Of a DNA stretch of 64,000 nucleotides, positions 23,184-32,806 are shown piece after piece. Where the stretch lies: the NCBI GenBank assembly GCA_044892525.1, contig CM097885.1:4962001-5026000 (forward strand), written 5' to 3'. This DNA comes from Schmidtea polychroa (lineage: Eukaryota). The position numbers were made by a program, and so were the translations under genes. A model generated the notes under the pieces. That model was not told the DNA's origin. It searched no databases and was given only the letters and a program-made list of their open reading frames with translations. Positions within the stretch are counted from its first letter, which is position 1. Each line of letters starts with the position of its first letter.

Positions 23184-26100
23184 TTAATATTTGTTACTCC
23201 CCATTCTCGGTAGTGTCGTGAACCCCGTATTGTTTTTAGAATTGAAAGAAGACTTGATGGAACTGGAGGACCTTAATAATTTGTTGTCGGTCATCAGGTA
23301 GTCCAAAGTGCTAAAGAAATGAAAACTAATGTGAATTCATTATCAAATTTTACCGATATTCTGTAGGAGAGGTGACCATTTCATTGTCTCTTTCCTCCTT
23401 CAGGCTTTTATTTTCTTCTTTTAGTTTTATAATCGTTTTTTCGGAATCATTTTGGATGTCATCTTGCTCAGCAATTCTTTTTTGAAGTTTTTTAATGGTT
23501 TGCTGATGCTTCAAATTTTCCATTAGCGTATTTTCTTGTTCGATCTAAAAATGATTTATCGTAATATACTCAACAATCGTTTTCAAGCTTACCTCTTTCT
23601 CTTCCAGCAGTTGTTTTTGTTCATCAATTTCTTGTCGTAGCGCTTCAGCATTCCGTTTCATTTCCTCTAAACTTTGATTGTACTTCTCATTAGTAGCAGT
23701 AATTTGGGAATGCAAATCGTAATTCAATTCTTGGATCACTGATATTTTGGATTCGTACTCTCTCCTCAAGCTATGGATGTCGCTTTCGATATTTTCTATT
23801 TCTTTTGATTTTATACTCACATTTTGTGATTGCAGCGTGATTTCTTCTTTCAGTTTCGATATCTCTTCTTCCAGTTGCACATTTTGTTCTTTGGATTGTA
23901 AGTACTTTTGGTTTATGTAATTTTTCTCTCTGTTGGCTCTATTTAGATTTAATTCCGTCTAATAAAAATAGTTAAGATAATAATAATAATAATAATAATA
24001 ATAATAATAATAATAATAATAATAATAATAATAATAATAATAATAATAATAATAATAATAATAATAATAATAATAATAATACATAATAATAATAATAATA
24101 ATAATAATAATAATAATAATAATAATAATAATAATAATAATAATAATAATAATAATAATAATAATAATAATACATAATAATACATAATAATACATAATTC
24201 TCTATGTATGCATGTGAATGAGTGATTATTGATTAACGCTTAATTAAAATCATTAATTGGCAAATTTTATTATAACTGTTGATCAACAACATGGCATTTT
24301 ATTTTTTTTTATCTGAAAATCTACTTTTCCTCTATTGAATGAAACATAATTTGTCCGATTCGGACCATTAATTCTTCTTTATTTCTTATGTTACTCATTT
24401 CCGGTTTAATAAATTTTAATAAATAGGAATATAACTACAAATTGAATCTTTTTTGAACATACAAATCTATAGAGAATTATGTATTTGGATTGATAACATG
24501 ATTCTGTCATCTTGGTGGGGTATAGTTAGTATTATTAGTAATAATTAATGTTATAATTATCAAATGATATAGTAAATGAGTAAAATTGTGATCCTTTGTT
24601 GCAAGTTTTATTCAATGAGAATTTTCTATTATGAAATTCATCTTCTCAATCTTATTAAAATCTTAGCTGATGTTGTAATCTTTCTAATTGCCTGCATTCT
24701 TACATTACGTTCGTTGAATTGATTGTGTAAATCAGTGATTCTCAACCACGGTGCCGCGAAGGTTTAGATATATAATATATCGAAATAATTTCAAATAAAT
24801 TCATAAAATGTTATAAAAATCACAAATAAACCTGAAAAATAATTAAAAACTATTTTATAATCAAAAGGTTGACTAAATAACAATCTCATAATTATATAAA
24901 ATCAAAATTCAAGCCTTAAAAGTTACTTAAATTTAAAAAACTTACTTGAAAACCATTTATAAAATTGAATAAATGAAGTAAATAACTTCACTTTCTCATA
25001 AATGGTGAGTCATATTCACTGATGCACACACCAAAGTGTATTATAGAAACTTTTGTGTGCCCCAAAATTTTGAAATCGTCAAAAGTGTGCCGCAACAAAA
25101 AAAGGTTGAGAATCACTGGTGTAAATAATATAAATTATATTATAAGAACTTTTTTTTCAAATTTAAGCACTGATTTCTTTTCCATTGTATTTATTGAAAA
25201 GCTTGAAGACTGAATCAGTAAATATATCGATGTTTTTGATATATTTACTGATTGATAGTCAAGCTTTTTAATAAATATAATTAATAATAATAGTGATGAA
25301 AGACATTATTATTATTATCATTGATGTTATTGTTGTGAAATACGAAAAGATAAAGGACATTATAATAATTAATACAAAAATATTACTTCACTAAAAGTAG
25401 ACTTCAAAGTCAAAATCTGAGCTTTCAAACGTTCTATTTGCTTTCTATATTCCATTGCTTGCATGTTCATCGTGTCTAGATTGCTCTCCAGTTCGTGATT
25501 CTAAATTACAATGTCAACTACTTTTACGCTAAATAATAACTGTTACTTTCTTTTTCGTTTCTTCGTAATTGTTCTCGATTATCTTCATTTCTTCTTTCAG
25601 TGCATCGCCATCTGCTTTTGCATTTTTCAACAGCATACTCAACTTTCGTTCGTGCTCATGATCTAGAATGGTGAGACAATAATACAACTCATGTATCAAA
25701 AATACACAAACCAATGTCTTCATCGCTTCCGTCTTTGTCTTTTGAATCGGTAATTTCTCGTTCTAATCTCCAGATCGTTGATTCGTATTGTTTGATTTTT
25801 TCTTGTAGCGATTCGTTTTGTTCTGTCAAATCTTGTAAGTGGAATTTCAAGGTGTTCTTTTCTGACAGATGGTCTTCTTCGGACGTTTTGATTTGCTCTA
25901 GGTATCGTTTTTTCATTTCTTTCATTCGAGTTTTTTGTAGCTCATAGTTCGAATCGTTTTCTTGTTGAATTTCATTGTTATAGCTAATCGCTTCTTCAAG
26001 CTCTTTGATCTTTTTATCTGAAATCGTCTTCTCTTGACTCAATGTAATGACGGCTTTGGTTTTCCTGTCAATTTCATTGTCCAGATATTCGCATTTTGTT

Positions 26101-32100: not shown

Positions 32101-32806
32101 GATTGGCTGTTTGCTCAGTGAATGTGCTGAATTACCCATTCAATTACCGATATTGATTTTCACACAGAAAGCACAAAATCAACTTTTAAATCAATGAAAT
32201 TTATTTGAATACAAATTGTAATTATGCAATTAATTTTCAATTTTTTGTTATTGATTTTGTATTGTATTTATTGATCAATGGTGCAAATTATCGATTATTT
32301 GCACAGATTCCTTTATTAGTCGATTATTAATTATTTTTAATTAATTATTAATTGAAATTTGTTTATAACATTTTAGAAAAATTAACATAAAATATTTTAT
32401 TTACCTAATCAAAGATTTTATTTATAAATTCTTACCTTGCGTTTTTCCGCTTGCTCTCTAGCTATGAAACCCTTGCAATGGGCCTTGAATCTCGGCAGCC
32501 AATTCTCAGCATGAACGTAAGGATCTATTTCATTTTTGTGCGCATTGAAAGTCACCTAAATTTGCGTTGAATAAAACGAAATCAGAGAGAAAAATTCCAA
32601 AAATTTACATTCATTGTCGTCCGTTTTCTGTTTGGGAGAGAACGGTAGTCATCTGTTGGGGTCAGATTTTCCAGCTTGTAGTGGCAATACTCGTTGATTT
32701 TTGTTCGGAAACTCGATTTTTTGTTGAGAAATATCGTTCCCGGAGTTGACAGGTTTGTCAGAGGCGTTGTCAAAGTCGGCGTTGGCGGCATGTTAGGTGT
32801 ACACAT
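23184..32806 (-). CDS. Motor-less myosin-like protein: short N-terminus, two IQ-like neck motifs, long coiled coil (~750-800 aa, ~13 coding exons)
   Basis: Approximate exons: 32806-32609, 32555-32436, 30378-30256, 29347-29258, 29198-29087, 29043-28951, 28905-28628, 26151-25711, 25663-25545, 25501-25388, 23938-23593, 23544-23354, 23310-23184. Spliced neck reads WLPRFKAHCKGFIAREQAEKRK|KEHEAVRIIQNAAEEFLDPLMQIFYTIRPTLK, followed by E/K/L-rich heptad exons. Ends ...TTLPRMGSNKY*. Confidence 0.75.
23977..24198. repeat. (AAT)n microsatellite
   Basis: Read directly from the sequence; intronic. Confidence 0.98.
24733..25118. mobile_element. hAT (Charlie-like) MITE
   Basis: Perfect 15-bp TIR cagtgattctcaacc. 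Perfect 8-bp TSD GTGTAAAT. Confidence 0.92.
25189..25276. repeat. ~90-bp palindromic hairpin element; related copies at ~28225-28285 and ~44042-44126
   Basis: atttattgaaaagcttga...aatcagtaaatatatc-loop-gatatatttactgatt...aagctttttaataaat. Confidence 0.75.
26266..27153 (+). mobile_element. Internally deleted hAT (Charlie/SPIN, GTF2IRD2-like) transposon retaining the transposase C-terminus
   Basis: TIR caacggtgggca / tgcccacccttg. Perfect TSD ACATATTA. ORF 26374-26946 contains FWK...YPHLKQAA...IFGTTYCCESLYSTMKFVKSKYRSQL (hAT dimerisation domain). Confidence 0.9.
29382..30124 (+). mobile_element. Probable solo LTR
   Basis: The 3' end ...gacacgaggagtc...ccgacttgcaaaataataacccaaca is homologous to 31480-31604 and similar to the 13981 end. 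The 5' end is degenerate and no TSD was confirmed. Confidence 0.6.
31300..31892 (+). mobile_element. Two LTR 3'-end fragments
   Basis: 31480-31604 aligns by eye with 30001-30124. A second CAACA-ending gaggagtc segment ends at 31892. Confidence 0.5.

Follow-up and report, generated by a model that had tools for sequence, protein, structure and literature searches.

Schmidtea polychroa carries a predicted gene for a myosin without a motor: a neck of the light-chain-binding type, preceded by a short leader and followed by a long coiled-coil rod. This headless gene lies on the minus strand between positions 32806 and 23184 of a 64,000-nucleotide stretch of contig CM097885.1 (assembly GCA_044892525.1, positions 4,962,001 to 5,026,000), which is called the window here and supplies the coordinates used below. 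It is probably an old duplicate of myosin XVIII (Myo18) that has lost the motor and retained a worn neck and rod. The first-pass annotation of the window had proposed a separate, motor-less gene with a myosin-derived neck, of class II or class XVIII; the intact gene model, the neck scores and the failure to find a motor support this proposal, and the intron positions point to class XVIII. No stand-alone headless gene of class XVIII was found in the literature searched, whereas headless myosins with IQ motifs are already known from other classes.

A worn but recognisable neck

With its ATG at 32806 and its stop at 23184, the predicted gene has 13 exons and 787 codons with no internal stop. All 12 introns have GT-AG ends; eight span 43–58 nucleotides (nt) and four span 911–2475 nt. 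After splicing, the terminal stop is the only one in the coding frame, compared with 66 and 54 stops in the other two frames, and the GC content is 0.37 in the exons versus 0.20–0.33 in the introns. The neck is assembled from exon 2 (32555-32436) and exon 3 (30377-30258), each of 120 nt and in phase 0; the splice of these two exons on which the annotation had built its neck was reproduced from their AG/GT ends and reading frame.

Set against a profile built from the necks of the genome's five myosin II genes, the spliced neck (residues 86-148) scores 22.0 bits (expectation value (E) 1.8e-4 at Z=25,000), where the best of 5,000 whole-protein shuffles reaches 9.3 bits. It scores 19.1 bits against a profile of full-length database myosin II necks (38 among the 120 matches listed) and 20.8 bits against 15 database non-muscle myosin II necks, with 11.4 bits for the best of 20,000 shuffles. 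An hhalign comparison of the exon 3 region gives E 0.0005 and a probability of 31%. On these profile scores the likeness to a myosin-type neck is above chance; similarity to myosins, on which the annotation had staked its reading, is found at 19.1–22.0 bits. The neck profile is not class-specific: an open reading frame of another myosin of the same genome (L035) scored 23.9 bits over the converter and the first IQ motif (IQ1).

The details of the neck show both retention and wear. In the IQ1-like motif (residues 89-99, window 32489-32457) the Q and the first R have each become K, and the G and the second R are kept. The second motif (IQ2) retains I115 and Q116 in exon 3, the hook has a four-residue deletion and has lost all three Trp, and the head-rod proline (P135, window 30293-30291) is present. 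A comparison of neck columns thus bears out the Q>K change, the missing WxW hook and the proline noted in the annotation. The spacing from IQ1 to IQ2 is exact; of 24 near-invariant columns (at least 90% conserved in 43 necks) eight are kept, including the IQ1 Gly, the IQ2 Gln and the head-rod Pro, and conservative replacements (R>K, Y>F, L>I, V>I, K>R) account for many of the changes. Set beside the two-IQ neck with a WPW hook of class XVIII, the neck is homologous and in register, but eight of these 24 columns are kept, the IQ1 Gln is replaced by Lys and the hook is lost. An Atlas search with exon 3 returned two IQ-bearing clusters at 0.75, which serve as a lead only, and a predicted complex of exon 3 with an exon of the genome's own non-muscle regulatory light chain (single sequences) reached 0.32 against a mark of 0.34 and is not counted either way.

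Such wear makes it possible, if on balance unlikely, that a gene of the same origin now has a vestigial neck that binds neither light chains nor calmodulin, the protein being a plain coiled-coil scaffold whose job is unrelated to myosin filaments. The altered Q and R of IQ1, the loss of the R-N of IQ2 and the deleted hook would fit this explanation, as would a rod that is beyond recognition by Pfam, phmmer and Atlas and has no myosin II charge repeat. However, the neck alone is still recognisable as myosin and its changes are mostly conservative, which suggests continued constraint; the exact IQ1-IQ2 spacing has been kept, and the rod of the genome's own Myo18 likewise has no charge repeat.

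Introns of the neck region

We take the neck to resemble those of class XVIII myosins. The genome's own gene of that class lies at G000:C1:238869231-238888036 (L056, L057), 234 megabases (Mb) from the headless gene, and has a divergent motor with the P-loop GRSGSGKS, an SH3_Myosin-XVIIIa match of 23.6 bits (below the cut-off of 27), and a neck and rod in an open frame of 788 codons in 13 GT-AG exons. In the fly myosin-18 the P-loop is GRSGAGKS (PMC3122231). The planarian Myo18 sequence is very divergent, and its IQ1 has R where G is usual.

The IQ1 exon of Myo18 has 43 codons and is bounded by two phase-0 introns, one in the converter and the other 18 codons past the hydrophobic residue of IQ1. 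The same two boundaries delimit the 40-codon exon 2 of the headless gene. Its 3' junction ranks first of 739 ungapped offsets on Myo18, and its global score against the Myo18 IQ1 exon was reached by 1 of 10,000 shuffles. Further along, the fourth intron (after residue 176) falls at Myo18 position 121 in three of three unguided alignments, so that introns 1, 2 and 4 all coincide with aligned Myo18 sites in phase 0. The myosin II genes are built differently: the two non-muscle genes have a phase-2 intron at codon 12, the three muscle genes have one at codon 21, and the converter intron is in none of the five. The genome measures 781 Mb, four of its contigs being very large; three muscle myosin II genes have also been reported for the planarian Schmidtea mediterranea (PMC3912159). 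Because introns 1, 2 and 4 lie at Myo18 sites where the myosin II genes have none, the parent is most likely the genome's own myosin XVIII and not a myosin II.

The neck sequence itself has a local score of 104 against Myo18 and 95 against the best myosin II. It prefers the non-muscle profile (22.8 bits) to the muscle profile (8.6 bits), and this preference is explained by the Myo18 neck, whose nearest counterparts are likewise smooth and non-muscle myosin II.

The rod and its resemblance to the Myo18 rod

The rod has a strong 3.52-residue hydrophobic period and about 500 residues of coiled coil. The several hundred residues of mostly coiled coil described in the annotation are therefore present, but they are interrupted by about 70 non-helical residues (177-244, exons 5 and 6) and again at about residues 476-483. 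A long, interrupted coiled-coil tail is a feature of class XVIII.

The annotation had further suggested a thick-filament protein, and here the evidence runs the other way. The 9.33-residue charge period (the 28/3 repeat), present in 119 of 119 windows from 40 myosin II rods with a minimum of 8.7, is absent from the headless rod (2.2-2.9) and also from the genome's own Myo18 rod (2.9-3.1). The headless rod has no match to Myosin_tail_1 (PF01576), and a search of 1.84 billion proteins gave six matches to it, none of them a myosin; one of the six, P0006, was dropped as a repeat protein. Against myosin II rods it scores 274 forward and 265 on average when reversed, where a true non-muscle myosin II control gives 1054 versus 349. 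The missing charge repeat therefore disfavours a self-assembling thick-filament protein. By formal membership the headless gene is neither a member of the myosin family, having no motor, nor a class II rod protein. Nor does it arise as an alternative product from one of the myosin heavy chain genes: the five of class II lie elsewhere.

The exon structure of the rod resembles that of Myo18 in phase order and lengths. Ten of the 12 introns have a collinear Myo18 partner of the same phase: beyond the neck region these are introns 5 and 7-12, with phases 1, 0, 1, 0, 0, 0 and 2. Introns 3 and 6 are private to the headless gene and three introns are private to Myo18. The segments that the shared introns delimit measure 124/112, 146/140, 39/43, 38/38, 122/127 and 64/94 residues in the headless gene and Myo18, respectively. 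With ortholog profiles, the starts of exons 11 and 12 rank 1 of 729 and 2 of 744 on Myo18, and nine paired junction windows, taken together, outscore all 20,000 heptad-shifted controls at each of the three window sizes. Sequence and intron register along the rod are suggestive, and the rod is likely to be a myosin XVIII rod.

A database protein of 421 residues, P0001, is 90% identical to residues 343-746 of the model, without gaps, across exons 8-12 and the four junctions between them. In Atlas the clusters nearest to P0001 are coiled coils of a generic kind, among them GCC2, HMMR and CCDC30, and its AlphaFold prediction consists of long helices with breaks only. Four further records are single-exon reading frames that match parts of exons 11 and 12 at 48-67% identity (56/117 and 46/95 for exon 11, 43/64 and 37/63 for exon 12); they come in pairs from two contigs, 947 and 981 bases long, and both exon-11 frames diverge exactly at the exon end. 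These records and P0001 place the rod half beyond Schmidtea polychroa, and its conservation in other species argues for selection on the rod. The last 17 residues of P0001 differ from the model, and no match to them was found downstream within the window. Among metagenome stretches, 0 of 146 contained relatives of P0001, and 1 of 156 matched the Myo18 neck exon, by chance and in a bacterial-type gene.

Several results weigh against descent from Myo18. In the neck, 16 of the 24 near-invariant residues are lost, including the IQ1 Gln and the three hook Trp; identity is 19/56 both to Myo18 and to the non-muscle myosin II gene L028, and a neck tree (20 rows, 66 columns) does not resolve and has long branches. 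In the rod, the whole-exon profiles of exons 11 and 12 rank lower on Myo18 (13 of 667 and 4 of 726), and the seven rod-only junctions give p 0.028, 0.088 and 0.072 at the three window sizes; junction pairs and window sizes were picked after inspection of the sequences. In a best-assignment control at the widest window the myosin II gene L030 ties with Myo18 (89 vs 86). The chain of matching introns depends on the tolerance, with p 0.02, 0.06 and 0.00025 at 6, 8 and 12 residues; at 12 residues it includes two pairings unlike the sequence-based ones, and L028 has p 0.019. Compared as a whole with the Myo18 rod, the headless rod scores 260 forward and 258 in the reversed control. P0001 has its initial Met in exon 8 and no neck, no protein in the protein-collection search shares three words with exon 2, and the class comparison is with a single myosin XVIII, the genome's own gene.

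These marginal rod tests bear on a chimeric origin, in which Myo18 neck exons 2-4 would have been fused to a coiled-coil gene of unrelated origin (exons 7 or 8 to 13). Introns 1, 2 and 4 alone carry strong support, exons 5 and 6 are non-helical and unalignable, and the genome readily sheds partial myosin copies. A fusion is nevertheless improbable: the phase series 1, 1, 2 is shared, segments agree within 12 residues over six successive introns, one exon is identical at 38 codons, and the starts of exons 11 and 12 rank first and second on Myo18.

No motor upstream

The part of the protein that precedes the neck is 88 residues long (66 from exon 1 and 22 from exon 2), close to the roughly 80 residues with a Pro/Thr-rich start given in the annotation. 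No match between exon 1 and the head of the genome's own myosin XVIII was found. Exons 1, 2 and 3, each searched alone, hit no Pfam family at E<=1, and searches with exons 2 and 3 singly against Pfam, PDB sequences, the genome itself and, for exon 2, the protein collection gave self or chance matches. The PDZ/KE extension and SH3-like domain of class XVIII have no counterpart in the gene, as exon 1 carries no Pfam family and PF24556 matches only C1:238.89 Mb.

A myosin motor domain (PF00063) is not present in the headless gene, and no GESGAGKT-type motif occurs in the six frames of the window. A motor profile of 38 sequences found nothing better than E 0.19 among the open reading frames of the window and of L042, which extends 8 kilobases (kb) beyond it. 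Ten pieces of the genome's own myosin XVIII head, run over 39 kb upstream, gave nothing above the reversed background except the P-loop of an ABCF-type ATPase, and the class XVIII P-loop GRSG(A/S)GKS is absent from the headless gene and from these 39 kb. The claim that no motor exons lie between the gene and TVP23 thus holds for the window, for 8 kb beyond it and, as far as Myo18 head pieces are concerned, for 39 kb upstream. Genome-wide, two Myo18 motor-exon queries found no second copy of that motor. A genome-wide Myosin_head search, in which 65 of 108 candidates were scored and a single exon of the divergent Myo18 motor was caught, listed 79 matches; of these the closest lies 1.3 Mb away on the opposite strand, and the closest on the strand of the headless gene at 23.5 Mb. 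A split gene, with the Myo18 motor at 238.9 Mb and its rod here, was rejected because Myo18 has its own neck and rod.

There is a small chance that the gene model is wrong at one end, either because upstream exons, possibly of a degenerate motor, have gone unseen or because the neck and rod halves are two genes. Upstream of the ATG, 32850 is a possible acceptor and a strong donor occurs near 34985, P0001 begins in exon 8, after the 2,475-nt intron 7, and the Myosin_head search had the limited reach just described. Against unseen motor exons stand the 39 kb upstream, which hold no motor piece like Myo18 or myosin II, the failure to find a second Myo18 motor in the genome, and the occupation of the upstream DNA by TVP23 (minus strand), ABCF (plus) and dishevelled (plus). 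Against two genes, the reading frame of exon 7 stays open as far as its donor and continues in phase into exon 8 across intron 7, and the layout from neck to tail matches Myo18.

Close to the preference of the first-pass annotation is an origin from non-muscle myosin II, with the headless protein serving to cap or modulate thick filaments. In its favour are the non-muscle preference of the neck profiles, the 19/56 identity to L028 and the location of L028 1.3 Mb away with many partial copies. It is nevertheless very improbable and was dropped after the intron comparison: intron sites that match neither non-muscle gene largely refute it, and further difficulty comes from the missing charge repeat, the near-background rod score against myosin II and the fact that the Myo18 neck, too, has its best likeness in smooth and non-muscle myosin II.

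At least seven recent partial, rearranged copies, with 77-97% DNA identity in matched pieces, derive from the non-muscle myosin II gene at C1:6.32 Mb. Partial copies are found at C1:6.65 Mb (L040), C1:11.17-11.22 Mb (L016, L017, L019, L020), C1:11.38 Mb (L024) and C2:115.58-115.64 Mb (L015, L029); the copy on C2 has the converter and IQ1 with deletions and broken frames.

Comparison with known headless myosins

As a probable old Myo18 duplicate, the headless gene shares with Myo18A and Myo18B, with Drosophila Mhcl/CG31045 and with the genome's own gene a neck with two IQ-like motifs, the head-rod proline and a coiled coil that is long and segmented; with the last it also shares intron sites and a rod lacking the 28/3 charge repeat. 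It differs from all of them in having no motor, SH3-like or PDZ part and in the loss of the hook Trp, and from its presumed parent in its separate locus and in a rod whose similarity is near background. Drosophila also has motor-less myosin-18 isoforms that consist of the Myo18 tail, but these are described as predicted N-terminally truncated transcripts of one gene (PMC3122231).

In other classes, stand-alone headless genes are best documented in plants. Myo11E4 of Poales, a headless grass gene with three IQ motifs, and AtMyo11E2 are partial-duplication genes recognised, like the present one, by intron positions; they belong to class XI, carry a DIL cargo domain and are clearly alignable to their parent (PMC3850447), unlike the planarian gene. 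Headless Myo10 and shrimp LvMYH4 also keep the neck (PMC5725431, PMC6537884). Headless Myo10, however, is made from the Myo10 gene itself by means of an alternative promoter; it begins within the motor, is complete apart from that and has been proposed to act as a dominant negative or scaffold (PMC5725431), while LvMYH4 is an annotated class II headless gene with an IQ motif, known from annotation (PMC6537884). The statement in the first-pass annotation that known headless products lack the neck is therefore incomplete, since Myo11E4, headless Myo10 and LvMYH4 keep IQ motifs or the neck.

Catchin/myorod, the Drosophila myosin rod protein, Lottia Mhc8 and paramyosin resemble the headless gene in joining a motor-less rod to a unique N-terminal piece; as far as they are described in PMC3912159, these class II rod proteins start after the light-chain domain, whereas the headless gene has the neck and is without the charge repeat or Myosin_tail_1. 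Cingulin and paracingulin are likewise motor-less rods that bind non-muscle myosin II rods without forming filaments of their own, and they provide a working model; they differ in having no light-chain neck and a globular junction-targeting head (PMC10202830), and the likeness drawn is one of role.

Neither a stand-alone headless class XVIII gene nor a paper on flatworm Myo18 was found in the literature searched, though supplementary myosin inventories could list such a gene. The part available of PMC10771114, which treats planarian myosin regulatory light chain, makes no mention of a headless gene. Inventories based on the motor domain or on Pfam miss genes of this kind: the headless gene has no curated Pfam match and no myosin match in billion-scale protein searches, and it is placed only by its spliced neck and its intron sites.

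Possible role

The duplicate would begin at the last exon of the converter region, which would account for the lack of both PDZ extension and motor. Neck, segmented rod and short tail would have been retained, and the Pro/Thr-rich first exon gained or remodelled. Without a head the protein would neither hydrolyse ATP nor bind actin in the manner of a myosin. Its roughly 500 heptad residues would form a two-chain coiled coil about 80-90 nm long, and it would probably be unable to move on actin or to build filaments alone.

Two known systems suggest what such a protein might do. Myosin 18A is ATPase-dead, binds essential and regulatory light chains and joins non-muscle myosin II filaments through its coiled coil (PMC7900500, PMC11112018, PMC11335295), and a model puts it near the filament middle (PMC7365473). 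The cingulin rod, which does not polymerise alone, binds non-muscle myosin II rods, shortens the filaments and disturbs their assembly (PMC10202830). By analogy, the headless protein may, tentatively, be a spacer, cap or tether that joins non-muscle myosin II filaments or lies alongside them, or it may pair with full-length Myo18. Since the neck is its best-preserved myosin feature, it is conceivable, at somewhat less than even chances, that a single EF-hand chain is still bound by the worn neck, with IQ2 as the most plausible site; such a chain would make the N-terminal end stiffer or tie it to calcium or to light-chain phosphorylation. A neck that persists as a vestige is nearly as likely.

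The job of myosin XVIII, an ATPase-dead myosin, is debated, as the head could act as an actin tether or the rod as a structural partner of myosin II filaments. A separately encoded, conserved version consisting of neck and rod, in an animal in which RNA interference is easy, would part these two roles. The boldest form of the proposal, which is unlikely as a whole, is that planarians carry a dedicated, conserved and fully headless myosin XVIII whose hook-less neck holds a light chain or calmodulin and which co-assembles with non-muscle myosin II or heterodimerises with Myo18, setting filament size and diluting the heads. If true, it would be the end point of a trend within class XVIII, from motor via dead motor to the loss of the motor, and RNA interference would give access to the question of whether rod and neck alone carry the structural role of myosin XVIII.

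Exon layout and genomic surroundings

The exons, all on the minus strand, fall into leader, neck, rod and tail. Exon 1 (32609..32806, residues 1-66) contains the putative start ATG and the Pro/Thr-rich leader, which is probably disordered; an in-frame stop lies upstream at about 32866. Exon 2 (32436..32555, residues 67-106), in phase 0 at both ends, holds the converter-end remnant and the IQ1-like motif, and exon 3 (30258..30377, residues 107-146) the IQ2-like motif, reduced hook and head-rod proline. The first coiled-coil heptads are in exon 4 (29257..29346, residues 147-176), whose 3' intron aligns with a myosin XVIII intron. Exon 5 (29087..29198, residues 177-213) is an Asn-rich non-helical break with a phase 1 end like the myosin XVIII rod-break exon, with which it is paired by phase and order only; exon 6 (28951..29042, residues 214-244) is the remainder of this break.

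Coiled coil resumes in exon 7 (28626..28904, residues 245-337) and continues through exon 8 (25712..26150, residues 338-483), which finishes with a short acidic break and a phase 1 end. Exon 9 (25547..25662, residues 484-522) is coiled coil running from phase 1 to phase 0, with 116 nt versus 128 nt in its Myo18 counterpart; exon 10 (25387..25500, residues 523-560), also coiled coil, is 114 nt long in phase 0/0 and equals the collinear myosin XVIII exon in length. The coiled coil of exon 11 (23593..23958, residues 561-682) is kept in two further database records and ends within exon 12 (23354..23544, residues 683-745), which has a phase 2 end like the last myosin XVIII intron. Exon 13 (23184..23310, residues 746-787) carries a Ser-rich non-helical tail and the stop; as P0001 ends differently, it is the least certain exon. 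An AATAAA follows at about 23105.

Mobile elements are interspersed with the gene. Fragments of a hAT transposase lie in intron 7 (26356-26946, plus strand) and upstream of the gene (36097-36348, plus), small inverted-repeat elements are found in intron 10 (24722-25129) and intron 7 (28047-28475), and a Gypsy-type long-terminal-repeat retroelement occupies 16695-21141 (minus), with protease, reverse transcriptase, RNase H and integrase in several frames. Upstream of the headless gene, a 140-codon open frame at 34985-35417 (minus) has no Pfam match, a possible donor near 35291 and the strong donor near 34985, which follows a short ATG frame; this region may be an alternative 5' exon of the headless gene or part of another gene.

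An EF-hand protein exon (Pfam EF-hand), presumably EFCAB2/DRC8-like, lies on the same strand 7.4 kb downstream (15565-15747, minus), an adjacency that is probably due to chance. On the other side, TVP23 (DUF846; 40874-41485, minus) and the ABCF-type ATPase (44300-45967, plus) are each a single long open frame and apparently intronless. The dishevelled gene (54541-64000, plus, continuing in L042) has a DIX domain by Pfam, and its exons in L042 are, we assume, PDZ- and DEP-like. Within a dishevelled intron, a 1.7-kb stretch starting at 63383 shares 98.5% identity with L040:6311-8000, which lies next to a partial myosin II copy; the stretch is probably a mobile element. Near the start of the window are a zf-UBP protein (Pfam; 3643-5374, plus), which we take to be BRAP2-like, and what is presumably a tRNA-splicing endonuclease-like gene (7270-8583, plus). 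Past the 3' end of Myo18, L057:1-2500 contains a long open frame on the opposite strand that we take to be Arf-GAP/Rho-GAP-like.

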